A stretch of 64,000 bases of DNA from Microtetraspora sp. (GTDB lineage Bacteria; Actinomycetota; Actinomycetes; Streptosporangiales; Streptosporangiaceae), in contig JBIOWF010000229.1 of the NCBI GenBank assembly GCA_044868295.1, positions 12,651 to 76,650 of the forward strand. Reading direction: 5' to 3'. Under the pieces are notes generated by a model that saw only the letters and a program-made list of their open reading frames with translations, searched no databases and was not told the origin of the DNA. Position numbers and translations under genes: made by a program. Positions 1,397 to 63,480 of the stretch are shown here, piece by piece. Each line of letters starts with the position of its first letter. The stretch's first letter is position 1.

Positions 1397-2045
1397 CGGG
1401 GTGCCTCCCAGCCGTTGGCCTTGGCGACCTTCAGACCCTCCAGCGAGGGGCCGGCGGCCGAGGGGCCGTCACCGGCCAGGCCGTCCGGGAGCCCGGCGAG
1501 GACCCGCGACGCTTCCTTGAACGTGCACAGCTTCTTCGGCCCGCGGGTCGGCGAGATCTCCTTGCCGTCGCGCAGGTCGTCGACGAGCTGTTTGGCCGAG
1601 GTGGGGGTCTGGTTGTCGAAGAACTCCCAGTTGACATCATCACCGGAGCGAAGTCGCAGGCGGCGTTGCACTCCAGCCGCTCCAGCGAGATCTTCCCGTC
1701 GGCGGTCGCCTCCTCGTGGCCGACGCCGACGTGCTCGGAGAGCTCATCCCAGATCTGGTCGCCGCCCATGATCGCGCACAGGCTGTTGATGCAGACGCCG
1801 ACGTGGTAGTCGCCGGCCGGCCTGCGCTTGTACATCGTGTAGAAGGTCGAGACGCCGACGACCTCCGCCTTGCTCAGGCCGAGCATCTCCGCGCAGAACT
1901 CGTGCCCGTCGTCGGAGACGTAGCCGTCCTCCGACTGCACCAGGTGCAGCAGCGGAAGCAGCGCCGAGCGCGCCTTCGGGTAACGGCCGATGATCTCCTT
2001 GGCGTCCGTTTCGAGACGCTCGCGGACCTCAGGTGAGTACGTCAC
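1393..2045 (-). pseudogene. nuoE: NADH-quinone oxidoreductase subunit E with an apparent 1-nt deletion frameshift
   Basis: The N-terminal part (MTYSPEVRERL...LECNAACDFAPVMM) is in the frame of ORF 1431-2045. The C-terminal part (VNWEFFDNQTPTSAKQLVDDLRDGK...) continues in the frame of ORF 1393-1671. The coding strand reads GTGATGATGTCAACTGGGAG near 1636; one extra G (ATGGTCAAC) restores VMMVNWEFF. Confidence 0.85.
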
Positions 2046-2125
2046 TGCGCCCTCCTCGCCTTCGGCTCGTCGGCGCGTGCCGTGAACGTGCTGTGCTTAT
2101 CGGCTCGCTCGCTTCGCTCACTCAC
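2042..2125 (-). repeat. MIRU-like intercistronic element with a 27-aa mini-ORF ([27 protein letters not shown]) linking nuoD to nuoE
   Basis: The GTG at 2125-2123 overlaps the nuoD TGA (GTGA). The TGA at 2044-2042 overlaps the nuoE GTG (GTGA). About three quarters nucleotide identity by eye to the hemA|hemC copies over the first ~46 nt. The 3-prime end carries GGCGAGGAGG as a Shine-Dalgarno sequence for nuoE. Confidence 0.8.
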
Positions 2126-3438
2126 CTGTCCACACCCCCCATGACCGGGTCGATCGAGGCGACCGCCGCGATGACGTCGGCGATCATGCCGCCCTCGCAC
2201 GTCGCGGGCACCGCCTGCAGGTTCGTGAAGGACGGGTCGCGGAAGTGTACGCGGTAGGGCCGCGTGCCGCCGTCGCTGACCACGTGCGCGCCGAGCTCGC
2301 CGCGCGGCGACTCCACCGCGGAGTACGCCTGGCCGGCCGGCACCCGGAAGCCCTCGGTCACCAGCTTGAAGTGGTGGATCAGCGCTTCCATCGAGCTGCT
2401 CATGATGTGCGCGATGTGGTCGGGCGAGTTGCCGAGGCCGTCGGGGCCGAGCGCCAGCTGCGAGGGCCAGCCGATCTTCTTGTCCTCGATCATCACCGGC
2501 CCGCCCTTGAGCGGCCCGGACAGCCGGTCGAGGGCCTGCTCGACGATCTTGAGCGACTCCTCCATCTCGGCCATGCGGACGAGGTAGCGGCCGTACACGT
2601 CACAGGTGTTCTCGGTCGGGACGTCGAACTCGTACGTCTCGTAGCCCGAGTACGGCTGGGACTTGCGCAGGTCCCACGGCAGGCCCGCGGCCCGCAGCAT
2701 GGGCCCGGTGATCCCGAGCGCCATGCAACCGGTCAGGTCCAGGTAGGCGACGTCCTTGGTCCTGCGGGTGTAGACCGGGTTGGCGTCGAGGAGCTTGCGC
2801 ATATCCTTGATCCGCGCCGGCATCACCTTGAGGAACTCGCCGATCTTGTCCACCGCGCCCGCGGGGAGGTCGACGCTCACACCGCCCGGCCGCACATAGG
2901 CCATGTTCATCCGGAGGCCGGTGATGTACTCGAACAGGTCGAGCACCATCTCCCGCTCGCGGAAGCCGAACAGCATCGGCGTGGTCGCACCCAGCTCGAT
3001 GCCGAACGTCGCGATGGCGACGAGGTGCGAGGAGATCCGGTTGAGCTCCATCATCATGACCCGGATGGCCTGCGCCCGGTCCGGGACCCTGTCGGTGATG
3101 CCGAGCAGCTTCTCCACGGCCATGCAGTACGCCGTCTCGTTGAAGATCGGCGACAGGTAGTCCATGCGGGTGACGAACGTGACCCCCTGGGTCCACGTCC
3201 GGAACTCCATGTTCTTCTCGATGCCGGTGTGCAGGTAACCGATCACCGTGCGGGCCTCGGTCACCGTCTCGCCGTCGAGCGTCAGCACCAGCCGCAGCAC
3301 GCCGTGCGTCGAAGGGTGCTGCGGGCCCATGTTGATGACCAGGCGCTCCTCGGACGAGTCCGAGACGGTCTCGACCAGCTCGTCCCAGTCCTGCCCGGCG
3401 ACGTCGTAGACCCGGCCTTCGGTCTCCGTGGCGGTCAT
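2122..3438 (-). CDS. nuoD: NADH-quinone oxidoreductase subunit D
   Basis: 438 aa ORF with a typical NuoD sequence ([15 protein letters not shown]...DPVMGGVDR). Confidence 0.95.
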
Positions 3439-3503
3439 GCGTTCACCTCGCCGCTGTGCCTGTGGATTCGCTCGCTGCTGTGCCTGTGGATTCGCTCGCT
3501 CAC
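3435..3503 (-). repeat. MIRU-like intercistronic element with a 22-aa mini-ORF ([22 protein letters not shown]) linking nuoC to nuoD; contains a perfect 24-bp tandem duplication
   Basis: The GTG at 3503-3501 overlaps the nuoC TGA. The TGA at 3437-3435 overlaps the nuoD ATG. Plus-strand units 3453-3476 and 3477-3500 are identical (gctgtgcctgtggattcgctcgct) and encode SERIHRHS twice in frame. Confidence 0.8.
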
Positions 3504-24157: not shown

Positions 24158-25747
24158 TCATTTGGTGCGGCGCCGCGCGCCCCGGCGAGTCTGGGACGGC
24201 CGGCGAGGAACCTCACCGGCTGAGACGGCCGCGTGCCGCTGCTTGGCACCATACTGCGCGAGGGCCGCCGCCAGGGCGGAAGCTGACGGCTTGTCAGCCA
24301 TCACGTCGACCCGGAGGCCGAACTCCTCGGCCGTCTTGGCGGTCTGCGGGCCGATGACCGCGATGACCGTGACGTTGTGCGGCTTGCCGGCGATGCCGAC
24401 GAGATTGCGCACGGTCGAGGACGACGTGAAGAGCACGGCGTCGAAACCGCCGCCCTTGATCGCCTCACGGATCGGCGCGGGCGGCGGCGCCGCGCGCACC
24501 GTCCGGTACGCCGTCACGTCGTCGCACTCCCAGCCCAGCTCGGTCAGCCCGGCGACCAACGCCTCGGTGGCGATGTCCGCGCGGGGCAGCAGGACGCGGT
24601 TGATCGGGTCCAGCATCGAGTCGTACGGAGGCCACTCGGCCAGCAGGCCTTCCGACGACTGGTCGCCGGTCGGCGTCAGGTCGGGCTTCACTCCGAACTC
24701 GACGAGCGCCTTCGAGGTGGCGTCGCCGACGGCCGCCACCTTCAGCCCGGCGAACGCCCGCGCGTCCAGGCCGTACTCCTCGAACTTCTCGCGGACGGCC
24801 TTGACGGCGTTGGCGCTGGTGAAGGCGACCCACTCGTAGCGCCCGGTGACCAGGCCCTTGATGGCCCGGTCCATCTGCTGCGGGGTGCGCGGCGGCTCCA
24901 CGGAGATCGTCGGCACCTCCTCGGGCACCGCGCCGTAGGACCGCAGCTGCTCCGACAGCCCGGCCGCCTGTTCCTTCGTACGCGGCACGAGGACCCGCCA
25001 GCCGAACAGCGACTTGGTCTCGAACCACGACAGCCGGTCGCGCATGCCGACGGCCTCACCGACGACGATGATCGCCGGCTCGGTCATGCCCGCGTGCTTG
25101 AGGTCGGGGCCGATCCGGCCGAGCGAGGACACCACGGTGTACTGCTCGGTCGTGGTGCCGTCGCTCGTCACCGCGACCGGGGTCGAGTCGGGCTTGCCGC
25201 CCGCGATCAGCGCCTTGGCGATCGGAACCGCGTCCGCGACGCCGTTGTAGATGACCAGGGTGCCCTCGCACGTGGCGTGCCGTGCCCAATCGTTCACCTG
25301 CGCGGCGTCCACGATCCGGAACTCCGGGACGGCCACCGCCGGCGGGATCCCCGCATAGGTCAGTACGGCTGTCGCGGGCGGGACGCCTGGCACGATCTCG
25401 AAGTCGACGTCGGCCTTGGCGCAGGCCGCGACCTCGTCGGTGACCGAGGAGAAGAACGACGGATCGCCGGGGCACACCCGCACGACGATCCGGCCGGCCT
25501 TCGCCTCCTGAACCGTCTTCAGCGACACCGACCCCTCGACGGCGTCGGCCGCGATGTCCACGACCTCCACGCCCTCACGGCAGTGGCGGAGCAGCGGCGC
25601 GTGCACGTCGTGGTCGATGAGCACGACGTCGGCCTTGGCCAGCAGTTCGGCGCCACGAAGGGTGAGCAGGTTCTCATCGCCGGGGCCCGCGCCGACGAAG
25701 GCGACGAACCCGGGCCGGGGCTCTGGACTGTGATTCGCGGGGCTCAA
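24158..25747 (-). CDS. Bifunctional uroporphyrinogen-III C-methyltransferase / uroporphyrinogen-III synthase
   Basis: N-terminal SAM methylase (FVGAGPGDENLLTLRG) fused to a HemD-like C-terminal half. This is the usual actinobacterial fusion. Overlaps the hemC stop. Confidence 0.9.
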   Translation of the reverse strand: MSPANHSPEPRPGFVAFVGAGPGDENLLTLRGAELLAKADVVLIDHDVHAPLLRHCREGVEVVDIAADAVEGSVSLKTVQEAKAGRIVVRVCPGDPSFFSSVTDEVAACAKADVDFEIVPGVPPATAVLTYAGIPPAVAVPEFRIVDAAQVNDWARHATCEGTLVIYNGVADAVPIAKALIAGGKPDSTPVAVTSDGTTTEQYTVVSSLGRIGPDLKHAGMTEPAIIVVGEAVGMRDRLSWFETKSLFGWRVLVPRTKEQAAGLSEQLRSYGAVPEEVPTISVEPPRTPQQMDRAIKGLVTGRYEWVAFTSANAVKAVREKFEEYGLDARAFAGLKVAAVGDATSKALVEFGVKPDLTPTGDQSSEGLLAEWPPYDSMLDPINRVLLPRADIATEALVAGLTELGWECDDVTAYRTVRAAPPPAPIREAIKGGGFDAVLFTSSSTVRNLVGIAGKPHNVTVIAVIGPQTAKTAEEFGLRVDVMADKPSASALAAALAQYGAKQRHAAVSAGEVPRRPSQTRRGARRRTK

Positions 25748-26676
25748 AGTGCCTGTTCCCCCATCAACGTGCCGGCCCCTTCGGCGATCATGGCGGCCGC
25801 GAGCTCGCGACCCAGGCCCATGGCCGCCGGAGAAGGTCCGGAGGTGGACTTGCGCACTGATCGGACACCGTCGATGGCCACGACGGCGGCGGTCAGGTTG
25901 AGAATGTGCCCGTCAACGGAGGCGAACGCACCTACCGGCGCCGCGCAGCCCGCCTCAAGGGCCGAGAGCACCGCCCGCTCCGCGGTGACCGCGGCGCGGG
26001 TGTGCGAATCGTCCATGACGCCCAGCAGCTCGATCAGATCGGCGCGGGTGGCCAGGCACTCGACGGCGAGCGCGCCCTGACCCGGCGCGGGCAGCATCTC
26101 GTCGACCTCGAAGATCTGGGAGATCTCGCTGTCCCGGCCGATCCTGGCGAGCCCGGCCGCGGCCAGCACAACCCCGTCCAGCTCGCCCGAGGTGACCTTG
26201 CCGATGCGGGTGTCCGCGTTGCCCCTGATCGGGACGTAGTGCAGGTCCGGCCGCAGCGCGCGCAGTTGCGCGATGCGGCGCGGAGAGCCGGTGCCGACCT
26301 TCGCGCCCGGCGGCAGATCCGAGAGCGGGGCCGGGCCGACCAACGCGTCACGCGGGTCGTCACGCGGCGATATGGCGGCGATCACGATCCGCTCGTCCAC
26401 CGCCGTCGGCAGGTCCTTGAGCGAGTGGACCGCGAAGTCGATCTCACCGTCGATGAGCTTGGCACGCAGCTCGCTGACGAACACCCCGGTGCCGCCGAGC
26501 TGCGTGAGCTGGGCCTTCGTGACGTCGCCGAACGTCGTGACGCCCACGAGCTCGACGCTCCGGCCGGTCAGCGCCGTCAACCGGTCGGCCACGAGCTGGG
26601 ACTGCGTGGTCGCCATCAGGCTCTTGCGGGTGCCGAGCCGCAACGGGCCGTCGTGGCCGTGCATTCGCTCGCTCAT
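25744..26676 (-). CDS. hemC: Hydroxymethylbilane synthase (porphobilinogen deaminase)
   Basis: The ATG at 26676 is preceded by GGCGAGGGGG. The protein reads MSERMHGHDGPLRLGTRKSLMATTQSQ... The TTG at 26727 from the ORF track is rejected. Confidence 0.9.
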   Translation of the reverse strand: MSERMHGHDGPLRLGTRKSLMATTQSQLVADRLTALTGRSVELVGVTTFGDVTKAQLTQLGGTGVFVSELRAKLIDGEIDFAVHSLKDLPTAVDERIVIAAISPRDDPRDALVGPAPLSDLPPGAKVGTGSPRRIAQLRALRPDLHYVPIRGNADTRIGKVTSGELDGVVLAAAGLARIGRDSEISQIFEVDEMLPAPGQGALAVECLATRADLIELLGVMDDSHTRAAVTAERAVLSALEAGCAAPVGAFASVDGHILNLTAAVVAIDGVRSVRKSTSGPSPAAMGLGRELAAAMIAEGAGTLMGEQAL

Positions 26677-26783
26677 GACACCCCCTCGCCTAGCGGCTCG
26701 GGGTCTGGTCGTGCCGAAGGCGCGCAATTCGACACTTCGCGAAACGCACTGTGCTTATCGATTCGCTCGCTACGCTCGCTCAT
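26673..26783 (-). repeat. MIRU-like intercistronic element, proximal copy, 36-aa mini-ORF (MSERSERIDKHSAFREVSNCAPSARPDPEPLGEGVS) ending on the hemC ATG
   Basis: The ATG at 26783-26781 overlaps the TGA of the distal copy. The TGA at 26675-26673 overlaps the hemC ATG. Nearly identical to the distal copy apart from an in-frame 27-nt length difference (a ~30-nt block replaces one TGC codon). Confidence 0.85.
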
Positions 26784-26863
26784 GACACCCCCTCGCCTAG
26801 CGGCTCGGGGTCGCATTCGCGAAACGCACTGCGCTTATTGATTCGCTCGCTACGCTCGCTCAT
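26780..26863 (-). repeat. MIRU-like intercistronic element, distal copy, 27-aa mini-ORF (MSERSERINKRSAFRECDPEPLGEGVS) starting on the hemA stop
   Basis: The ATG at 26863-26861 overlaps the hemA TGA (ATGA). The TGA at 26782-26780 overlaps the ATG of the next copy. Confidence 0.85.
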
Positions 26864-28170
26864 GAGTCGGCCTCCATCCGGGAAACGGCGTCGGGCGCCT
26901 TGGGATCGAGGTTGAACAGCTCGCGCAACGCCTCCGCATAATGATCGCCCGCCGGGGACGCGGCCAGCTGCTTGACACGCACGGTCGGCTCGTGAAGCAG
27001 TTTGTCCACCACCCGCCGCACGGTCTGGGCGACCTCGTCGCGCACCCGACCGTCCAGCTCCGGCACGCGCGAGACCAGCCGGCCGATCTCGGCCTCGACG
27101 ACGTCGGCGGCCTTGCTGCGCAGCGCGATCACCGTCGGTGTCACCCTCGCCGACCGCTCCGCTTCGAGATAGGCGGTGACCTCCTCGGTGACGATCTCCT
27201 TCACCGCGAGGATCGCCTCGCCCCGGCCGCCGTCGTCGGCGCCGAGCCCGGCCTGCTGCATCGACTCCAGGTCGACGAGTGTCACGCCCGGCAGGGCGCG
27301 CACGCCCGGATCCACGTCGTGCGGCAGAGCGAGGTCAAGCAGGAAGAGCTGCGTCGAGGGGTCGCGGCCGGCGATCGCGGCGGAGACCATGTCGACGGTG
27401 ACGGCGCGGGAGCCGGCACCGACGCACGAGACCACCAGGTCGGCCCCGGCCAGCTCGGCGGGGATGTCCGCCAGCTCGACGGCCCGGCCGCCGATGGCCT
27501 CCGCCAGCCGTACGCCACGCTCGAAGGTGCGGTTCGCGATGACGATGTCGGTCACGCCCGCGCGGGCGAGAGACGCCGCGGACAGCGCGCTCATCGATCC
27601 CGCGCCGACGACCAGGGCCCGCTTGCCGGCGATCGGGCCGAGCACCCGCTCGGCGAGCGACAGGCCGACCCCGATCAGGGAGGCTCCCGCCCGGTCGATG
27701 CCGGTGTCGGTGTGCGCCCGCTTACCGACCCGCAGAGCCTGCTGGGTGAGCTCGTTGAGCGAGGTCCCGGCGGTGCCCTCGTTCTGCGCCAACCTGAGCG
27801 CCGTGCGGATCTGGCCGAGGATCTGGCCCTCACCGATCACCATGGAGTCGAGGCCGCAGGCCACCGAGAACAGGTGCTGGACGGCGCGGTCCTCGTAATG
27901 CACGTACAGGTGCTTGGTGAGCTGCTCCTGGGGGATGCCCGAATGCACGCTGAGCAGGTCCGTCACCGCGGCCAGCCCGCCGTGGAAGCGGTCCACGTCC
28001 GCGTAGACCTCGACGCGGTTGCACGTGGACACGACGAGGACCTCGGACACGTGCTGGTCCCGCTGCACGTCGTGCAGCAGTTTCACGAGCGCGTCACCGC
28101 TCACCGTCACGCGTTCGAGTAATGCGACCGGGGCGGTGTGGTGGCTGACGCCGACGGCGAGGATGCTCAT
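26860..28170 (-). CDS. hemA: Glutamyl-tRNA reductase
   Basis: 436 aa with a typical HemA sequence (MSILAVGVSHHTAPV, STCNRVEVY). Confidence 0.95.
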   Translation of the reverse strand: MSILAVGVSHHTAPVALLERVTVSGDALVKLLHDVQRDQHVSEVLVVSTCNRVEVYADVDRFHGGLAAVTDLLSVHSGIPQEQLTKHLYVHYEDRAVQHLFSVACGLDSMVIGEGQILGQIRTALRLAQNEGTAGTSLNELTQQALRVGKRAHTDTGIDRAGASLIGVGLSLAERVLGPIAGKRALVVGAGSMSALSAASLARAGVTDIVIANRTFERGVRLAEAIGGRAVELADIPAELAGADLVVSCVGAGSRAVTVDMVSAAIAGRDPSTQLFLLDLALPHDVDPGVRALPGVTLVDLESMQQAGLGADDGGRGEAILAVKEIVTEEVTAYLEAERSARVTPTVIALRSKAADVVEAEIGRLVSRVPELDGRVRDEVAQTVRRVVDKLLHEPTVRVKQLAASPAGDHYAEALRELFNLDPKAPDAVSRMEADS

Positions 28171-28220
28171 GCTGTCGCCTCACCATGCGACTCGACCCAA
28201 TGGGGGCGCTCGCCACTCAT
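28167..28220 (-). repeat. Divergent linker mini-ORF (MSGERPHWVESHGEATA, 17 aa) bridging rex and hemA
   Basis: The ATG at 28220-28218 overlaps the rex TGA. The TGA at 28169-28167 overlaps the hemA ATG. Begins ATGAGTGGCGAGCG, resembling the 5-prime module of the MSER elements. Confidence 0.6.
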
Positions 28221-29353: not shown

Positions 29354-31006
29354 TTATCTGAAGGTTGTGGGGAGAGGCACGACCTTGGCGGCGTTCACGG
29401 TCAGCTCGATGACATTGGTGGCCAGGACCAGCGCCTGCCGCTCGGTCGCGAAACGCTCCATGTGGGGCTGGCGCTGGTGCTCGGTGAAGCCCACCTCGTC
29501 CCGGTAGAGCTCGTACACGATGCGCTGCAGCGGCGCCGACTTGACGCCGTGGCACACGAAGATCAGCGTGTCGGGTTCGCTGCGCTGCACGGCCTCCACG
29601 GTCTCCTCGGCCAGCCTGTCGAAGGCATCGCCTGAGCCGTCCATCAGCGTGAACACGGTGAGCAGACCATAGATGCTGGGTGACGGCTTGACCGTGCCGC
29701 CCTGCATCGGGCTGCTCTGCATGGGACCGGACTGCAGGGGACCGGGCGACGGAGGACCGGGCGGCATCGGGCCCATCGGACCTGACTGCATCGGACCTGC
29801 GGGACCAGGAGGCATCGGGCCCATCGGGCCGGGCGGCACGGGGCCCATGGGCCCCGGGGGCACCGAGCCGGGCGGCATGGAACCGGGCGGCATGGAACCT
29901 GGGGGCATCGGGCCGGGGGGCGCGGGCGCCGGGCCTGGTCGGGCCGCAGGGCCGAGCCCACCGCCCGCGCCTGGGCCCATCTCCGCCCCAGGGAACATCG
30001 CTCCTGTGGCGGGCATGCCGTACTCCTGCTTGGACTGAGCCGCCGGCATGCCGTACTCCGGCTTGCCGGGCGCGCCGTACGGGTCGGAGCTCATGATCTG
30101 ACCGGTCGCGGGGCCGCCGAAACCATCGGCCGGCTGCATCCGGGCGGCGTAGTCGACCTCACCCTGCTCGCCCGCGCGGTACTCCGCCACGAGGTCGCCC
30201 AGGCCCGAGCGGCGGGCAGGAGCCTGCGCGGGCGGCTCGACACGATCCTCGGCCGCGCGGTGGTCGCGCCCCTGCCACTCATCCGCACGCGCGTCCACCT
30301 CCTCGTCCTCGTCCTCGTACGGCGCGAGCGGGCGGGCGACCGCGTACCAGATCGCTCCGACGGCGGCCATCATGAGCACGATCACGACGACTCCGGGGAG
30401 CGTGAACTCCAGCGATACCGCGAGCGCGATTCCGGCCGGGGCGAGCGCCACGCTGGCGTTCATGTTGTCGGCGTCGTAGTCGTCCCCGTCCCGCCAGCTC
30501 AGCAGGGCGATGGCGAGAGAGATCACCAGCATCGCCACGACGAGCCCGTGGACGCCCCTCAGCAGCCATTCGGGCCAGATGTCCCAATGCGTCGCACCGT
30601 ACGGGAGCTCCTTGGCGAACGCCCCTGACAGGGGATCGAACAGCAGGATCACCGTGCCGACGACCGTCAGGGCGATGCCCAGCAGCCAGCCCGCGAACCG
30701 CGCCGCCGCCTTCTCGGCCAGCAGTTGGAGCACGCCCACGGCCAGCCAGAGAGGCGCCAGCAGCGAGCCGGTGATCTGGAACGACCGGAAGGTCGTGGAC
30801 CCGAATCCGATCAAATGCCCGGTGGCCGCCACACCCAGCGACAGGCACAGCGCGACGGTGGCGATGGTCCACGCGGTCAGCCAGCCCGAGGGCTCGTCGC
30901 GCAGGCGCCCGATCAGGACGCCTACGGCGATGGCGGCCAGGAGCGCGCCGGCGAACGCGATGACAGCGACAAAGACTTCCATGGTGGCACCCATGCTGCC
31001 GGACAT
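29354..31006 (-). CDS. Membrane protein with a Pro/Gly/Met-rich linker and a C-terminal ABM (antibiotic biosynthesis monooxygenase-like) domain
   Basis: 550 aa with about 6 N-terminal TM helices. A low-complexity PPGSMPPGSMPPGSVPPGPMGP run follows. The C-terminus (YGLLTVFTLMDG...YELYRDEVGFTEHQRQPHMERF) is ABM-like. Confidence 0.6.
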   Translation of the reverse strand: MSGSMGATMEVFVAVIAFAGALLAAIAVGVLIGRLRDEPSGWLTAWTIATVALCLSLGVAATGHLIGFGSTTFRSFQITGSLLAPLWLAVGVLQLLAEKAAARFAGWLLGIALTVVGTVILLFDPLSGAFAKELPYGATHWDIWPEWLLRGVHGLVVAMLVISLAIALLSWRDGDDYDADNMNASVALAPAGIALAVSLEFTLPGVVVIVLMMAAVGAIWYAVARPLAPYEDEDEEVDARADEWQGRDHRAAEDRVEPPAQAPARRSGLGDLVAEYRAGEQGEVDYAARMQPADGFGGPATGQIMSSDPYGAPGKPEYGMPAAQSKQEYGMPATGAMFPGAEMGPGAGGGLGPAARPGPAPAPPGPMPPGSMPPGSMPPGSVPPGPMGPVPPGPMGPMPPGPAGPMQSGPMGPMPPGPPSPGPLQSGPMQSSPMQGGTVKPSPSIYGLLTVFTLMDGSGDAFDRLAEETVEAVQRSEPDTLIFVCHGVKSAPLQRIVYELYRDEVGFTEHQRQPHMERFATERQALVLATNVIELTVNAAKVVPLPTTFR

Positions 31007-37364: not shown

Positions 37365-38528
37365 TCACGGCATCGGATCCAGCCCGTGGTAGGGGAAGAC
37401 CGCGTTCCGGGTGGCCATGATCGCTTGATCGATCGGGTCTCCCGGATCGTAGCCTGCCGAGATGTCGCGGAAGTCCGGGGTGCGCCCATCTGACATCGTC
37501 AGCGGCGGCGTCTCTCCGGTCCGGTCCCGCACCAGGGTCCGCCAGCTCTGCGGCGTCGTGGTCGCCGGATCGATGGGACTGCCCGCCGCCTCGGCGATCA
37601 GATGGGTCCACGCCCGCGGCACGACCTGGACGAGCTCGTAGCCCCCGCCTCCCGTGGCGACCCATCGCCCGCCGGCGGTCTCGTGGGCCAGCCGGTGCAG
37701 CGCGGCGTAGGCCGTACGCTGACCGTCGACACTGAGCATCAGATGGGCCAGCGGGTCGAGGGCGTGGCTGTCGCACCCGTGCTGCGTCACGAGCACCTGC
37801 GGCCCGAACTCGCGCAGCAGTGGCGGCACGACGGCGTGGAAGGCGCGCAGCCAGTCGCCGTCGCCGCAGCCCGCCGCAAGCGCGACGTTGACCGCGGTGC
37901 CCTGGGCGCCGGTCTCGCCGGGGAATCCGGTGCCCGGAAACAGGGTGCGCGGGCTCTCGTGCAGGCTGATCGTGAGCACCCGCGGATCGTCGTGGAACAG
38001 GGCCTGGACCCCGTCGCCGTGATGCACGTCCACGTCCACGTAGGCGACCTTCGACGCGCCCTGTGAGAGCAGCCACGCGATCGCGACCGCCGGGTCGTTG
38101 TAGACGCAGAAGCCACTTGCCGTGTCCGCCATGGCGTGGTGCAGCCCGCCCGCCACGTTCACCGCGTGTTCGGCCCGGCCGGTCCACACCGCCCTGGCCG
38201 CCTCCAGAGTCGCTCCCGCGATCAGCGCCGAGGCCTCGTGCACTCCCGCGAAGGCGGGGTTGTCGGCGGTGCCCAGCCCGCAACTCAGATCGGGCCTGCC
38301 CGTCGCGGAGACGCCCTTGACCGCATCGATGTAGTCCCGTTTGTGCACCAGCGCGAGCTCGTCATCACTGGCCGGCTCGCAGCCGGACAGCTCGACCCCG
38401 TCGAGCACGCCCAGATCACGGGCGAGCTCCATGGTCAGCTCGACGCGCACGGGTGCGAGCGGATGCCCGGGGCCGAAGTTGTACGACGTCAGCGCGTCGT
38501 CCCAGACCACCCGGACCGCGTCGCTCAT
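37365..38528 (-). CDS. acuC: Acetoin utilization protein AcuC (histone deacetylase family)
   Basis: 387 aa with HDAC motifs (GGLHHA, VDVDVHHGDGVQ). Confidence 0.9.
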   Translation of the reverse strand: MSDAVRVVWDDALTSYNFGPGHPLAPVRVELTMELARDLGVLDGVELSGCEPASDDELALVHKRDYIDAVKGVSATGRPDLSCGLGTADNPAFAGVHEASALIAGATLEAARAVWTGRAEHAVNVAGGLHHAMADTASGFCVYNDPAVAIAWLLSQGASKVAYVDVDVHHGDGVQALFHDDPRVLTISLHESPRTLFPGTGFPGETGAQGTAVNVALAAGCGDGDWLRAFHAVVPPLLREFGPQVLVTQHGCDSHALDPLAHLMLSVDGQRTAYAALHRLAHETAGGRWVATGGGGYELVQVVPRAWTHLIAEAAGSPIDPATTTPQSWRTLVRDRTGETPPLTMSDGRTPDFRDISAGYDPGDPIDQAIMATRNAVFPYHGLDPMP

Positions 38529-38584
38529 CTCGCCCCCTCGCCTGCCGGCTCGGAGCCGGGGCCGCGATCGCTTCGCTCCGTCAT
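38525..38584 (-). repeat. MSER-family element acting as a leader mini-ORF (MTERSDRGPGSEPAGEGAR, 19 aa) coupled to the acuC start
   Basis: ATG at 38584. The TGA at 38527-38525 overlaps the acuC ATG (ATGA). The sequence ATGACGGAGCGAAGCGATCG...CCGAGCCGGCAGGCGAGGGGGCG matches the 5-prime and 3-prime modules of the hemA|hemC copies. Confidence 0.7.
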
Positions 38585-38813: not shown

Positions 38814-39998
38814 TCACTCCGTCCGCAGAGCGATCACCGGGTCCAGTTTCCCGGCGCGCCGGGCCGGGGCGACACCGAAGAACACGCCGACCGCCGCCGA
38901 AACACCGAATGCCAGCGCGATGGACCACGAGGTGATCGCGGCCGGGACCGGAGACACGGCCTGGATCAGCAGCGCGCCGCCCACCCCGATCAGGATGCCG
39001 ATCAGCCCGCCGATCGTCGTCAGGAGCACCGCCTCGATGAGGAACTGGCCCAGGATGTCCCGCTGACGGGCGCCGAGCGCCTTGCGCAGACCGATCTCCT
39101 TGGTCCGCTCCCGGACGCTGACCAGCATGATGTTGGACACGCCCACCCCGCCGACCAGCAGCGAGATGCCGGCGATCGCGGCCAGCACACCGGTGAGCAT
39201 GCTGAGGACCGTGCCGATCGTGCCGAGCAGTTGAGTCTGGGTCACCGCGGAGAACTTCTCGTCCGGATAGCGGGTGTTCAGCGCGTCGACCACCCGGCGC
39301 TGCAGCGGCTCGATCTCGTCCGGGCCGGAGGCGCCCACCGCGATGCCGTTGATCCTCGACAGGCCGATGAGCCGCTGTGCGGTGGTGACCGGGATGTGCA
39401 CCTCCTGGTCGCGCGCCACGCCGAAGGTGGAACCCACCGTCTCGTACACGCCGATCACCCGGAACCGCACGCCCGCGATGGTGACCTGCCGTCCGAGCGG
39501 ATCGACATCGCCGAACAGCTTGCCCGCCACCTCAGCGCCGAGGATGGCCACCCTCCGGCGCGTGTCGACGTCGGTCTCGCTCAGGTGCCTCCCCCGGCGC
39601 AGCGGCCGGTCGAAGATGTTGGGCAGGTTCTCGTCGGTCCCGGTCAGCGTGGCGAACACCTCGGTCCGGCCCACCCGCACGGACTCGCCCGAGTTGACGG
39701 CCACCGTCACCTTCGACGGATCCCCGACGACCCGCCGCACGTAGGCGACGTCCGACAGGTCGAGCCGGCTCTGCGTGGGCGCCGCACCGAGACCGACCTG
39801 GCCGGGAACGACCAGGATGATGTTGCTGCCCAGCCCGGCGATCTCCTTCTCGACCGCGTTCTTGGCACCCGTGCCGATCGCGACCAGGATCACCACCGCC
39901 GAAACACCGATGATCACACCGAGCATGGTGAGCGTGCTGCGCAGCCGGTTGACCCGCAGCGCCTCCAGGGCCATCCGCAGCGCCTCGGCCGTCCTCAC
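38814..39998 (-). CDS. ABC transporter permease (MacB/FtsX family)
   Basis: 394 aa with an N-terminal TM helix, a large periplasmic domain and a C-terminal FtsX 3-TM module. Confidence 0.9.
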   Translation of the reverse strand: MRTAEALRMALEALRVNRLRSTLTMLGVIIGVSAVVILVAIGTGAKNAVEKEIAGLGSNIILVVPGQVGLGAAPTQSRLDLSDVAYVRRVVGDPSKVTVAVNSGESVRVGRTEVFATLTGTDENLPNIFDRPLRRGRHLSETDVDTRRRVAILGAEVAGKLFGDVDPLGRQVTIAGVRFRVIGVYETVGSTFGVARDQEVHIPVTTAQRLIGLSRINGIAVGASGPDEIEPLQRRVVDALNTRYPDEKFSAVTQTQLLGTIGTVLSMLTGVLAAIAGISLLVGGVGVSNIMLVSVRERTKEIGLRKALGARQRDILGQFLIEAVLLTTIGGLIGILIGVGGALLIQAVSPVPAAITSWSIALAFGVSAAVGVFFGVAPARRAGKLDPVIALRTE

Positions 39999-41023
39999 GC
40001 GTCCTCCCGCGATCCGGTACGGCTGCCGCCTGCGGCCTCGCCGGGTCCAGTACGGCCGGCACCACCCGCCTCACCCGGTCCAGTACGGCCGGCACCACCC
40101 GCCTCGCCGAGCCTGGCATGGCGGCCGCCGCCCGCCTCTCCCGATGCGGTATGGCCGCCGCCGGCCCCTCCATATCCGGCATGCCGGCCGCCACCGGGCT
40201 CTCCCGGCCCTGTACGGCCGGCCGCGGCGGGGACCGTACCCGAACCGGAGTCGAGCTCGATGAGCCCGTCGCGGACGTGGATCTGGCGGCGGGCGCGTTC
40301 CGCCACCTCGGGCTCGTGTGTGACGAGGACGACCGCGACCCCGCCCTCCTCGTTGAGGCGCTGAAGGAGGTTCATCACCTCCGTGCCGTTTCGCGTGTCG
40401 AGGTTTCCGGTCGGCTCGTCCGCCAGGACGACCTTCGGATCACCGACCAACGCGCGGGCGATGGCCACCCGCTGCTGCTCGCCGCCGGACATCTGCGAGG
40501 GCCGGTGGTCCAGCCGGTGGCCGAGCCCGACGGCCTCCAGCGCCTCCTTCGCCGCGCGGCGGCGCTCGCTCCGCGCCACCCCGCGATAGACCAGCGGCAG
40601 CGCGACGTTGTCGAGCGCCGACGTGCGGGCCAGCAGGTGGAAGGACTGGAAGACGAAGCCGATGGTCTCGTTGCGCAGCTCGGCGAGCTGTGTGTCGTCG
40701 AGCGTCGAGACGTCGACGCCGCCCACCTTGAGGGTGCCGGTGGTCGGCCGGTCGAGGCACCCGAGCAGATGCATCAGCGTCGACTTGCCCGACCCGGACG
40801 GCCCGAGGATCGCCGCGAACTCCCCCTGGTCGATGCGCAGGTTCACCCCGCGCAACGCGTCGACGGACACGCCTTCGAGCTGGTAGGACCGGGTGAGATC
40901 GACCGCGTCGAAAGCGCTCGCCGAAGTCTCGGCGGCTCCCACGATCATGAGAGGGGTTCCCGCCGGCCGCGCGGGATCATCGCGCCTGTCTGCATGCTCG
41001 CGTACGGAGTCAATGCAGGTCAC
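39995..41023 (-). CDS. ABC transporter ATP-binding protein (MacB-type ATPase) with a Gly/Ala/Pro-rich C-terminal tail
   Basis: Has Walker [10 protein letters not shown], signature LSGGEQQR and Walker B VVLADEP. The tail of about 85 aa includes a 33-bp tandem duplication (40041-40106, [11 protein letters not shown] x2). The start may be the ATG at 40948. Confidence 0.9.
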
Positions 41024-45684: not shown

Positions 45685-46152
45685 ATGCGGGCTCGTCAAA
45701 GAGGTATGCGAAGACTCTGGCTCACCCCGGTCCTGTTCCTTGCGGTCGCCTGCGGCGGCACCCCCGGCACGCCGGCGGCGGGTCCCGATCAGGTGGTGAG
45801 CACCACGGCGAGCTCAGGAACGCCTGCCGTCGCACCCTCCGCCGTCGAACCGTCCGCGGTCTCACCGGTCGGCGGCACGCTCCAGCCGCACAAGATCGCG
45901 TGGACCCGCGCCACGCCCTCGGCGGACGGAACCTCGCTGAACATCGTGTGGTGGTCGGGTGTGGCGCCGTGCGCCGTGCTCGACCGGGTCGAGGTACGGG
46001 AGGGGACGGGCGAGGTGACGGTCACGCTCTACGAAGGTTACGACCGTCACTCCCCCGACGCCGTGTGCATCGAGATCGCCCTGGAGAAGAAGACCACCGT
46101 CAAGCTCTCCGCCCCTCTCGGCGGCCGCAAGATCGTCGACGGCGCGAAGTGA
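45685..46152 (+). CDS. Small lipoprotein of unknown function (paralog 1)
   Basis: Has lipobox FLAVACGG and a conserved core PHKIAWT...WWSGVAPCAVLDRV...VTVTLYEG...GGRKIVDGAK. Confidence 0.6.
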   Translation: MRARQRGMRRLWLTPVLFLAVACGGTPGTPAAGPDQVVSTTASSGTPAVAPSAVEPSAVSPVGGTLQPHKIAWTRATPSADGTSLNIVWWSGVAPCAVLDRVEVREGTGEVTVTLYEGYDRHSPDAVCIEIALEKKTTVKLSAPLGGRKIVDGAK

Positions 46153-46206: not shown

Positions 46207-46608
46207 ATGCGGACGATGCGACGTATGGCGGCGGTTGCCGCGACTGTTCTGATGGTCACGCTCGGCGGGATGAGCGCGACCGCTCATGCGGCGGCCGGTA
46301 CGGCGGAGCCCACCCCGGTGAAGCCGCAGGGCGGCACATTCAACCCCCACAAGGTCCGGTGGACTTCGGCGAAGCCGATCAAGAAGGGCAGGTACCTCAA
46401 GATCACCTGGTGGTCGGGCGTCGCGCCGTGCTGGGTGCTGGACCGGGTGAAGGTGAAGGAGACCGCCAAGAAGGTCACCGTGACCCTGTACGAAGGGAGC
46501 GACAAGGATGGCGGCATGTGCATCCTGATCGCCACCAAGAAGACGACGATCGTGAAGCTCAAGACCCCCCTCGGCGACCGCAAGATCGTCGACGGTGCCA
46601 AGAAGTGA
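46207..46608 (+). CDS. Small secreted protein of unknown function (paralog 2)
   Basis: Has a signal peptide (SATAHAAAG). Roughly half its residues are identical to 45685-46152 by eye, including both conserved Cys and the RKIVDGAK C-terminus. Confidence 0.6.
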   Translation: MRTMRRMAAVAATVLMVTLGGMSATAHAAAGTAEPTPVKPQGGTFNPHKVRWTSAKPIKKGRYLKITWWSGVAPCWVLDRVKVKETAKKVTVTLYEGSDKDGGMCILIATKKTTIVKLKTPLGDRKIVDGAKK

Positions 46609-50664: not shown

Positions 50665-51012
50665 ATGGATGCCAACTTCTTCGATCTGTCCGATGACACC
50701 CCGGTCTACGTCATCTCGGTGGCGGCCCAGCTGTCCGGGCTGCACCCGCAGACCCTCCGCCAGTACGACCGGCTCGGCCTGGTCAGCCCAGGGCGTACCG
50801 CAGGCCGCGGGCGGCTCTACTCGACCCGGGACATCGTCCTGCTGCGCGAGGTGCAGCGACTCTCTCAGGAAGACGGCATCAACCTCGCCGGCATCAAGCG
50901 CATCCTCGAACTGGAGACCGAGAATTTGCGCCTGCGGGACGAGGTCGTGCGCCTCCGGGGTGAGCTGACCATGATCCGCGCACTGATCAGATACGAACTC
51001 CCTCCGGCATGA
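50665..51012 (+). CDS. hspR: Heat-shock transcriptional repressor HspR (MerR family)
   Basis: [33 protein letters not shown]. Position after dnaJ. Confidence 0.9.
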
Positions 51013-51026
51013 GTGCGAGGCAATGA
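51009..51026 (+). other. Minimal 5-codon linker ORF (MSARQ) bridging hspR and clpB
   Basis: In ATGAGTGCGAGGCAATGA, the ATG overlaps the hspR TGA and the TGA overlaps the clpB ATG. It may be a minimal relative of the MSER elements or a coincidence. Confidence 0.35.
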
Positions 51027-62487: not shown

Positions 62488-63399
62488 ATGGAGAAAACGG
62501 CCAAGCCGCAACGCTCTATCCGGCGGACACGGAAGGGGTCGTCAGCGGACCTGCTTCACCGGCTCGAACGGTCCACGACCCTTGACCAGCCCATCCGGGT
62601 GATCGCGAAGGCCGTGCGTCGCAGGCTCGGCGTCGGCCGGATCCGCGACCTGCTGCACGGCGTGCCTCTCGGCCATCCCGTCCATCCCCCGCTGGCCACC
62701 TTCAGCCTGGGCTGCTGGCTGGCGACAGCCGTACTGGACCTGACCAGATCGGATCCGCGAGCCGCCCGGGCGCTGCTCGCGACCGGAGTGGGCGCCGCGA
62801 TCCCGACGGCCGCCGCCGGGATCGCGGACTGGTCGACCCTCCATCGGGAGCAGCAGCGCGTGGGGATCGTCCACGCGCTGTCCAACCTGACCGCGGCCGG
62901 GCTCTACACGGCGTCCCTTCTGCTGCGCCTCGACGGGAAGGAGCGGACCGGCCGAGTGCTGGCGTTCGCCGGGCTGAGCGCGGCGAGTCTCGGTGGTTAC
63001 CTGGGAGGCCACCTCGCCTTCCGGCTGGCAGCCGGGGCGAACCATGCCGAGTCGGTCAGCCACCTGGTGCCGCTCGGCTGGCACGACCTGTGCGCGCTGC
63101 GTGACCTGCCCCACGGGCGCCCGGTCGCCCGGCGGCTCGGCTACATCGACCTCTTCGTGCTGCGGTTCGGGGACGGGGTCAGCGTACTCGCCGACCATTG
63201 CTCCCACCTGGCGGGGCCGTTGCACCAGGGCCGCGTCGTCGTCGAGGACGGCGACCCCTGCGTGGTGTGCCCGTGGCACGGGAGCGTCTTCCGCATCTCG
63301 GACGGCGCGGTGGTGCACGGGCCCGCCACCGCACGCCAACCGGCGTTCCAGACCCGGCTGCGGCGCGACGGCATCGTCCAGGTCCGCCCCGCCGACTGA
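62488..63399 (+). CDS. DUF2231 membrane domain fused to a Rieske [2Fe-2S] domain
   Basis: Has the GHPVHPPL motif and 4 TM helices. The C-terminal CSHLAGPL...CPWHGSVF region is a Rieske CxH/CxxH pair. Confidence 0.8.
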   Translation: MEKTAKPQRSIRRTRKGSSADLLHRLERSTTLDQPIRVIAKAVRRRLGVGRIRDLLHGVPLGHPVHPPLATFSLGCWLATAVLDLTRSDPRAARALLATGVGAAIPTAAAGIADWSTLHREQQRVGIVHALSNLTAAGLYTASLLLRLDGKERTGRVLAFAGLSAASLGGYLGGHLAFRLAAGANHAESVSHLVPLGWHDLCALRDLPHGRPVARRLGYIDLFVLRFGDGVSVLADHCSHLAGPLHQGRVVVEDGDPCVVCPWHGSVFRISDGAVVHGPATARQPAFQTRLRRDGIVQVRPAD

Positions 63400-63480
63400 T
63401 CGTCCGGCTTCGGCCTGCCGACTGATCGTCCAGGTCCGGCCTGCCGACTGATCGTCCAGGTCCGGCCGGGCCGCCTAATG
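63373..63480 (+). repeat. Tandem repeat of about 26 bp (4 units) duplicating the 3-prime end and stop codon of the Rieske gene
   Basis: Units at 63373-63398 (atcgtccaggtccgccccgccgactg), 63399-63424, 63425-63450 and a degenerate 63451-63480. The first unit encodes the last residues IVQVRPAD plus TG of the stop. Confidence 0.85.

Follow-up and report, generated by a model that had tools for sequence, protein, structure and literature searches.

The stretch of DNA analysed here, a 64-kb window (64,000 nucleotides) of a Microtetraspora sp. contig, carries on its minus strand the genes hemA and hemC, which encode glutamyl-tRNA reductase and hydroxymethylbilane synthase, respectively. The 190 bp between them had been described, in a reading made from the sequence alone, not as spacer but as two chained and near-identical mini open reading frames (ORFs), and the ATGA overlaps can indeed be read at all three joints. 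Positions 26673-26863 consist of two tandem intercistronic repeat units of 84 and 111 nucleotides (nt), in the order hemA, A1, A2, hemC, and each unit is a mini-ORF that shares bases at its ATG with the TGA before it and at its TGA with the ATG after it. The hemA gene ends in GAC TCA TGA, and its stop codon (26862-26860) is overlapped by the A1 start codon at 26863. The 27-codon ORF of A1 (product MSERSERINKRSAFRECDPEPLGEGVS) ends in a TGA that is overlapped by the A2 ATG at 26783, and the 36-codon ORF of A2 (product MSERSERIDKHSAFREVSNCAPSARPDPEPLGEGVS) ends in a TGA that overlaps the hemC ATG at 26676.

The first 23 nt of A1 and A2 are identical, as are the last 33; what sets the units apart is an in-frame insert of 27 nt and three substitutions, the latter having been put at a few in the sequence-only reading. 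Within the window, the 24-nt 5' end is present exactly two times, as is the 30-nt 3' end, and neither is present in shuffled sequence. The long form with the 27-nt insert is also present, again as a tandem pair, in Microbispora catharanthi (L024). The observation of two tandem mini-ORF units between hemA and hemC is confirmed. The closest named relatives of the HemC protein are from Planotetraspora (85-88% identity), a member of the family Streptosporangiaceae, and the host is not Mycobacterium.

Filled and empty sites in related genomes

The hemA/hemC junction can be compared in eight relatives: two Logan assemblies (89% HemC identity), two Planotetraspora, two Microbispora, one Sphaerisporangium and one Streptosporangium. 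In all eight the two genes are joined by a direct 4-nt overlap of the form RTGA (where RTG is ATG or GTG) with zero units, compared to two in the window. The empty site reads ...GACTCATGAGTGACCGAGG in both Logan assemblies and ...GACCAGTGAGCGATCC in the two Planotetraspora, and is ATGACC or GTGACC in Microbispora corallina, M. rosea and the Sphaerisporangium; in Streptosporangium sandarakinum, which also has no unit at this junction, hemC starts with GTGAGCGAC. As a separate observation, hemC and hemD are about 50 nt apart rather than overlapping in Sphaerisporangium sp. NPDC049002 (L211, 1633-1684), and no match to the repeat family is found there.

The insertion polymorphism can be followed to the nucleotide at the nuoD/nuoE junction, where the window holds another unit (unit B in Table 1). 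The empty site, GACCGGTGACGTACGC, consists of GACCGGTGA followed directly by CGTACGCACC, with a bare GTGA, both in a relative with 89% NuoD identity (L130) and in M. corallina (L008). The window reads GACAGGTGA, then 80 nt, then CGTACTCACC (CGTAC...), where the relatives have GACCGGTGA followed directly by CGTAC. The comparison of filled and empty sites thus places the unit exactly on the stop/start tetranucleotide, which is recreated at the far end. In M. corallina (L008) the nuoC/nuoD junction holds an 81-nt unit that is not the one seen in the window, and two other loci (L132 and L134) have no unit there. Metagenomic nuoD loci served as further empty-site controls and gave no new copies, none of the 80 having a unit. 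Because the units are absent from the orthologous hemA/hemC junction (eight of eight relatives) and from nuoD/nuoE in relatives, they are insertions and not conserved coding sequence of hemA or hemC.

A repeat family distributed across many actinobacterial orders

The GTDB collection, with one genome per species, was scanned with a 20-nt motif (TGAGYGAGCGWAGCGAGCGA) that seeds the 5' module of the unit, and gave at least 120 matches; the counts that follow refer to the matches listed. Most of them are in Actinomycetota of many orders and include Microbispora, Nonomuraea, Planobispora, Planomonospora, Streptosporangium, Micromonospora, Plantactinospora, Phytohabitans and Asanoa, as well as Nocardia, Kribbella, Nocardioidaceae, Nakamurella, Flexivirga, Kitasatospora, Streptomyces and several metagenome-assembled genomes of Acidimicrobiia. 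At least 98 begin with ATG or GTG. Among them are 73 mini-ORFs, 23-35 codons long (mode 27), each with a TGA that is overlapped by an RTG, and for 67 of the 73 this RTG is the start of a reading frame of 80 codons or more. A dispersed repeat family located exactly at gene junctions, as had been proposed, is therefore present, and it is far wider than the proposal envisaged. In other genomes the units precede unrelated genes, 72% of the downstream genes begin with RTGAGY, and the first and last RTG of a unit mostly agree (about 35 A..A and about 10 G..G, versus about 10 mixed). Tandem arrays of two to three units occur at nine or more loci.

The family can be divided into sub-families that track taxonomy, in that the apex and stem sequences differ from one bacterial family to another, and the window units are of the Streptosporangiaceae type. 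This pattern argues for a long residence with lineage-specific turnover. The 5' module encodes a characteristic MSERSER peptide, and fusions of this module to long ORFs are seen at several loci (L015, L022, L098, L112, L117, L119, L120 and others). Since the module is fused in frame, the repeat can become, or be annotated as, the amino-terminal extension of a protein.

The 20-nt motif is also found in Acidobacteriota, Thermoanaerobaculia, Gemmatimonadota, Bacteroides, Patescibacteria and archaeal genomes (L007, L027-L029, L043, L048, L059, L062, L064, L076, L084, L102, L106, L121 and others). In those other phyla the motif starts with CTGAG or TTGAG, is flanked by short inverted repeats of its own (gtcATTCTgagcgagcgtagcgagcgAAGAATc) and has no mini-ORF. 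These copies look like a separate repeat, similar to repetitive extragenic palindromes (REPs), that reuses the same GA-mismatch hairpin. A pattern scan of IMG/VR viral contigs detected isolated 5' hairpin modules and no complete unit. Thirty-five viral contigs (L213-L247; 29-71% GC) carry the module alone, often as a lone GC-rich hairpin within AT-rich DNA or followed by runs of A and T, and one contig (L242) has a minimal 27-nt unit, ATGAGCGAGCGAAGCGAGCGATCATGA, of eight codons ahead of an ORF. BLAST searches with the 191-nt spacer gave no match in phages and, in plasmids, one unannotated partial match on a 2.8-Mb Streptomyces replicon.

Anatomy of the unit: two hairpins and a conserved frame

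The repeat unit is built from two covarying hairpins that the sequence-only reading had not described. The 5' module, RUGAGYGAGCGWAGCGAGCGARY, forms G-C pairs and tandem G.A mismatches around a GWA triloop, and its apex, GCGWAGC or more generally GCGNAGC, is an extraordinarily stable DNA mini-hairpin motif with a melting temperature of 70-76 C (PMC13037366). RNAalifold, run on a MAFFT alignment of the units, recovers this hairpin alone and not the 3' hairpin, and the 5' helix is 96.8% paired by RNAalifold and pair counts. The pair between R1, the first base of the start codon, and Y23 is A-U in 25 sequences, G-C in 15 and broken in seven. In two diverged Nocardia copies (L030 and L093), G9-C15 is replaced by A9-T15, a compensatory pair.

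The 3' hairpin is longer and has GAGCGnAGCGA at its apex, or GAGCCGCnAGGCGA in Streptosporangiaceae. GAGG lies in its 3' arm together with the next cistron's RTG and, in many cases, the bases that follow, and the complementary ...CUCAY is in its 5' arm. Minimum-energy folds of 62 units have every base of the downstream start codon paired in 43 of them and some of its bases paired in 17, with a mean z-score of -2.3. The first base of this codon is in an A-U pair in 39 units and a G-C pair in 12, and positions -7 to -2 each show four or five pair types. Taking both helices together on a 47-sequence alignment, 73.5% of the cells are paired; none of 500 shuffles gets that high (69.2 +/- 0.7%), and sliding the partners gives 26-41%. 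The two helices have a covariation score of 0.218, compared to 0.153 in shuffles and at most 0.106 with slid partners. The presence of many G.U pairs indicates that the structure belongs to the sense strand, that is, to the mRNA or the same DNA strand. In roughly a quarter of the units (L017, L018, L032, L055, L108 and others) the 3' stem extends 2-5 bp into gene-specific bases after RTGAGY. The difference between a unit's own flank and swapped flanks averages -1.35 kcal/mol (Wilcoxon p 0.03), with 28% of the units ranking in the best 10%. This extension hints that the arm either adapts to its target after insertion or is made in part from it.

Of 57 units, 52 have a Shine-Dalgarno (SD)-like motif (GGAG, GAGG or AGGA) upstream of the 3' RTG and 31 have one upstream of the 5' RTG, against a background of 8%. 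When the frame is examined without assuming an ORF, 54 of 59 units (92%) have the SD motif with its RTGA at a distance from the first RTG that equals 2 mod 3, the values being 68, 71, 74, 77, 80, 92, 95 and 104 nt, and this spacing means that the length changes in whole codons. The MSERSER amino terminus of the encoded peptide is near-invariant, and the middle and carboxy-terminal residues vary freely between units. Judging from this pattern of conservation, translation itself, rather than the peptide product, appears to be under selection. The unit ends are not terminal inverted repeats: by direct reading, RTGAGYGAGCG and the reverse-complemented 3' end (TCAYGnC...) match at the RTGA/TCAY tetranucleotide only, and the 4-nt RTGA is repeated at both ends of the unit.

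Other copies and features in the window

A profile made from the listed window copies identifies five members within the 64 kb (A1, A2, B, C and D), all of which lie on the minus strand in the same orientation as the genes. An independent profile, built solely from the units of other genomes and then run on the window, recovers A1, A2 and B and, weakly, C (Table 1), and gives no match to unit D at 38525-38584. Unit D has a 40-nt 3' module at 75% identity and the GAGCGAAGCGA core in common with the family. The double overlap that had been claimed for B, C and D is present in B and C; in D, the 5' ATGA is overlapped by no upstream gene. Two more divergent copies had also been proposed, at 28167-28220 and 51009-51026. 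Both have the double-overlap layout, but they are too short or too diverged for statistics, their membership in the family is not provable, and they are best described as possible remnants. In Planotetraspora the rex/hemA junction reads GTGAGTGAGCGAGCGATCGGAGTGTGCTCATGA, a unit with a truncated 5' module (GTGAGTGAGCGAGCGA...) that matches the profile weakly (E 0.08). The identities of the genes flanking the repeat units were confirmed with Pfam.

Table 1. Repeat units, their parts and the adjoining hem genes in the window
Feature	Position	Strand	Description
Unit A1	26780..26863	-	84 nt, 27-codon mini-ORF; ATG overlaps hemA TGA, TGA overlaps A2 ATG; E 2e-14 with profile from other genomes
Unit A2, long form	26673..26783	-	111 nt, 36 codons; the 27-nt insert folds into an extra hairpin; E 2e-9 with profile from other genomes
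A1 5' hairpin module, AUGAGCGAGCGUAGCGAGCGAAU	26841..26863	-	G-C pairs and tandem G.A mismatches, GUA triloop; contains GCGTAGC mini-hairpin motif
A1 3' hairpin	26775..26823	-	3' arm holds SD-like GAGGGGG (26788-26794) and next ATG; from per-unit folds and stem covariation across genera
hemC first five codons, ATGAGCGAGCGAATG	26662..26676	-	Resemble unit 5' end; empty sites of relatives also start RTGAGYGA
hemA, glutamyl-tRNA reductase	26860..28170	-	Upstream cistron; PF05201 (GlutR_N), PF01488 (Shikimate_DH), PF00745 (GlutR_dimer)
hemC, hydroxymethylbilane synthase	25744..26676	-	Downstream cistron, 310 aa; 100% identical to database protein P0121; PF01379, PF03900
Unit B	2042..2125	-	84 nt, nuoD/nuoE; GTGA overlap at both ends; profile E 2e-8
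Unit C	3435..3503	-	Degenerate, 69 nt, nuoC/nuoD; GTGA ... ATGA, internal 24-nt duplication, no stable hairpin; profile E 0.02
Unit D	38525..38584	-	Short, 60 nt, leader of histone-deacetylase-family gene; 3' ATGA overlaps gene start
rex/hemA mini-ORF, probable old remnant	28167..28220	-	17 codons, ATGA overlap at both ends; conserved in nearest relative (L124)
Possible minimal remnant, ATGAGTGCGAGGCAATGA	51009..51026	+	5-codon mini-ORF with double overlap, before ClpB-like gene

The window also contains repeats of other kinds. An ABC-transporter ATPase-like ORF on the minus strand (39995-41023) has a repetitive, Gly/Pro/Ala-rich carboxy-terminal tail that is encoded by six copies of a 33-nt tandem repeat (39992-40222); a repeat with a period of 24 nt, GGACCGGGCGGCATCGGGCCCATC and its variants (29712-29914), probably codes for a Pro/Gly-rich repeat; and a 26-nt unit, ATCGTCCAGGTCCGGCCTGCCGACTG, is present in three to four tandem copies at 63373-63467. 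The neighbouring segments 45937-46149 and 46396-46602, spaced about 455 nt apart, have 76-78% of their positions in common, which suggests tandem paralogous genes.

A candidate mobile translational coupler

The best explanation for these observations is a repeat whose target is the RTGA stop/start overlap of co-translated genes, or a start codon, and which rebuilds the overlap at both of its ends. We consider it likely that the hemA-hemC spacer represents two tandem copies of such a small mobile, or at least insertion-prone, repeat, seated on an RTGA overlap and keeping the downstream gene coupled, and the earlier interpretation is to that extent supported. Each unit brings with it a replacement start codon, a frame of about 27 codons, a 5' hairpin based on GCGWAGC, and a 3' hairpin that contains GAGG and the next start. 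This anatomy suggests translational coupling. A ribosome finishing hemA (or nuoC or nuoD), or loading on the original SD of the gene, would reinitiate on the unit, read through the 3' hairpin and melt it, stop at the UGA, which shares bases with the next AUG, and reinitiate on that AUG; the downstream gene would hence stay translationally coupled despite the 80-190 nt inserted. The peptide encoded by the mini-ORF is probably irrelevant. The logic of termination-reinitiation and RNA unfolding has been reviewed (PMC12548453), where it was already suggested for the interspersed repetitive units of mycobacteria (MIRUs).

Several points weigh against this interpretation. The translation of the mini-ORFs and the reinitiation are deduced from the anatomy and not from expression. 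The window units fold only modestly better than shuffled sequence does (z -1.4 for A1 and -0.1 to -0.5 for A2), unit C is without a hairpin (z +2.6), and unit D is without an upstream cistron, its sole SD-like motif being too near its ATG. Among the matches listed, about 20 consist of a 5' module joined in frame to a long ORF, and about six in other genomes have both modules with a broken terminal overlap. The covariation alignment is a MAFFT alignment and is imperfect, and the 3' structure was supplied from one member and then tested by pair counts and by folding single units. Neither a transposase nor terminal inverted repeats nor any other sign of mobility was found, no search having been aimed at an enzyme gene, and the units may have spread by template switching or recombination at RTGAGYGA microhomology.

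How the units might move

An alternative that we regard as possible, if short of probable, places the emphasis on DNA: the units would be REP-like, or would move as single-stranded DNA of the IS200/IS605 type by means of an HUH enzyme, or would arise by hairpin-induced template switching, and the open frame would be no more than a filter that selection applies to insertions within operons. Such an element concerns mobility and is compatible with the coupling function preferred above. Both apices are GCGNAGC, the DNA mini-hairpin motif (PMC13037366), the RTGA is duplicated or recreated at both ends, and the first and last RTG agree in most of the units listed. The empty hemC sites ATGAGTGA and GTGAGCGA already resemble the 5' end of a unit, and the 5' hairpin module occurs alone in phage contigs and other phyla. 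However, no associated enzyme gene was found, none having been searched for, all units seen are co-oriented with the flanking genes, and the frame is kept in 92% of the units. The stem, moreover, includes the SD and the start codon and has G.U pairs in abundance, which fits a role in mRNA. The RTGAGYGA targets, the 72% of genes beginning with RTGAGY and the agreement of the two RTGs fit either an enzyme that recognizes RTGA plus a hairpin or hairpin-promoted template switching.

The units can also be compared to known classes of small repeats. Like REPs and bacterial interspersed mosaic elements (associated with the RAYT transposases) and the elements derived from IS200/IS605, they are short, abundant and hairpin-forming, with a conserved tetranucleotide beside the hairpin and a plausible single-stranded DNA intermediate. 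REPs, however, are extragenic and non-coding, occur in both orientations and are usually found downstream of genes, whereas the window units are strictly co-oriented, keep an open frame and lie on start codons or stop/start overlaps. With those miniature inverted-repeat transposable elements that create or lengthen ORFs or have effects on mRNA, such as Correia, ERIC, RUP and BOX (PMC3184786), they share small size, a non-autonomous nature, co-transcription, RNA hairpins, insertion polymorphism and short target duplications; in contrast to those elements, they have no terminal inverted repeats, their target is the translation signal RTGA and the unit is built as a translatable cistron. A functional parallel to a short ORF that brings in ribosomes and clears structure from a start codon, with its UGA overlapping the AUG (-4 spacing), is provided by bicistronic design and natural termination-reinitiation (PMC12548453). 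Those couplers are fixed operon features or engineered parts, whereas the coupler described here is a dispersed repeat.

Relation to mycobacterial interspersed repetitive units

MIRUs are used worldwide for the typing of tuberculosis isolates and were known from a single genus. To our knowledge, how they move and how they affect gene expression has been an open question since 1997, in part because of this restriction to one genus. As far as they are described in the accounts (PMC12548453 and PMC3184786) that cite the original work of Supply et al. 1997, MIRUs have the organization that the sequence-only reading had recognized in the window, with overlaps at both ends and tandem units. Both kinds of repeat are 40-100 nt long, intercistronic and oriented like the operon, A1, A2, B and C being on the coding strand at hemA/hemC, nuoD/nuoE and nuoC/nuoD. 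In both, the mini-ORF overlaps the adjacent genes by 4 nt (at both ends in A1, A2, B and C, and at the 3' end only in D), and the SD for the next gene lies within the unit. Also common to both, according to the same accounts, are tandem arrays of two to three units, copy-number differences between species, long and short size classes, and filled and empty orthologous sites with a tetranucleotide repeated at both ends.

For a direct comparison, the authentic senX3-regX3 spacer of M. tuberculosis (L122) was retrieved via RegX3. It contains three 77-nt MIRU units of the form ATGACCTGCGCCGACGACGATGCAGAGCGTAGCGATGAGGTGGGGGCACCACCCGCTTGCGGGGGAGAGTGGCGCTG followed by ATGA. The nhmmer profile of the family matches the three units at E 1.0-1.2 (3 bits over 22 nt), which is not significant and bears out the claim that the sequence family differs from MIRUs. 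What is matched is an 11-nt core, GAGCGTAGCGA, plus GAGG, and the same core is found in both hairpin apices of the present family. The M. tuberculosis MIRUs have no favoured fold (z +0.2 and -0.2). Unlike MIRUs, the window family has a fixed 5' module, RTGAGYGAGCGWAGCGAGCGA, and two covarying hairpins with the downstream start in a stem, where the MIRU start codon is not; it spans many actinobacterial orders and the Acidimicrobiia, with no Mycobacterium among the matches listed. On the evidence of the sequence comparison, we provisionally classify the window repeats as MIRU-like in architecture and probable mechanism and not as members of the MIRU sequence family, although a distant common origin is possible. 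In the literature searched, which left subscription journals largely uncovered, no report of such repeats outside Mycobacterium was found, and this is not proof of novelty. As a side observation, the RegX3 proteins deposited for M. tuberculosis (P0001-P0010) are 227, 245, 248, 256, 262 and 277 aa long, and the gene in L122 is called from position 2501, within the repeat array; evidently, gene callers start within the upstream MIRUs.

A more far-reaching suggestion, which we offer tentatively and hold to be rather doubtful, is that both belong to an ancient, phylum-wide class of mobile translational-coupler mini-cistrons in Actinomycetota, of which MIRUs would be one diverged mycobacterial branch. 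Members of this class would be copied via hyperstable GCGNAGC single-strand hairpins, by a host enzyme or by template switching at RTGAGYGA, and would be targeted to start codons and stop/start overlaps, and through their 3' hairpin expression of the downstream gene would strictly require translation upstream of it.

It is unlikely that the units are simply true MIRUs, of the same sequence family and merely outside Mycobacterium. The architecture is identical: RTGA ends enclose an in-frame mini-ORF, the next gene is preceded by an SD, and the units come in tandem arrays and in a long and a short form. The core plus GAGG is common to both, but the profile match is at the level of E about 1, MIRUs have neither the 5' module nor a favoured fold nor a start codon in a stem, and Mycobacterium is absent from the matches listed (zero among at least 120), yet Nocardia is represented many times.

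Leader, small protein and assembly artefact

Three further explanations can be weighed. The first, that the units are no insertion and serve haem and respiratory operons as a conserved cis-regulatory leader or attenuator, draws on their location in hem and nuo operons, on a layout of an upstream ORF plus a hairpin as in attenuators, and on the conservation of the rex/hemA mini-ORF in the nearest relative. We consider it very improbable, since the same junctions are empty in all close relatives, the downstream genes in other genomes are unrelated, there is no terminator-like run of T, and Rfam gives no match at the gathering threshold in the whole window. A permissive Rfam scan of 26500-27000 likewise gave nothing relevant, the sole sub-threshold match being ASpks (15.9 bits, versus a gathering score of 52).

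It is equally improbable that the mini-ORFs encode functional small proteins (MSERSERI... peptides). The frame and the MSERSER amino terminus are conserved, and a gene caller predicted a 27-aa product on a Logan contig; however, what is conserved is the nucleotide sequence, in the places where the hairpin lies, the changes seen are compensatory pairs such as the one in the two Nocardia copies, the remaining residues are free to vary, and the five mini-ORF peptides have no Pfam or NCBIfam match at E up to 10.

The source genome is also available as a Logan short-read assembly of SRR30692719, which breaks at the units, one contig (L001) ending within A1 and another (L123) beginning at the end of A2, so that the link between A1 and A2 is without independent assembly. 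That the tandem pair is an assembly artefact is nevertheless scarcely credible, since both outer junctions (hemA-unit and unit-hemC) are independently assembled, A1 and A2 differ by the insert and the substitutions, the long form is present in Microbispora, and tandem pairs are common in other genomes.

Implications

The family found in the window follows the same logic as MIRUs, with a clearer anatomy and in hundreds of independent lineages. Filled and empty sites are available in easily grown actinomycetes (Streptomyces, Micromonospora and Nocardia), and the questions raised by MIRUs thus become accessible to comparative genomics and reporters. The units also have practical consequences, in that they fragment short-read assemblies and produce spurious amino-terminal extensions and mini-genes in annotation. 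They are the natural counterpart of the bicistronic design used in synthetic biology, and they are located within essential operons (nuo and hem) of antibiotic-producing genera. If the proposed coupling design is correct, the repeat would persist in such operons at little cost, and the downstream gene would depend strictly on the translation of the gene upstream.

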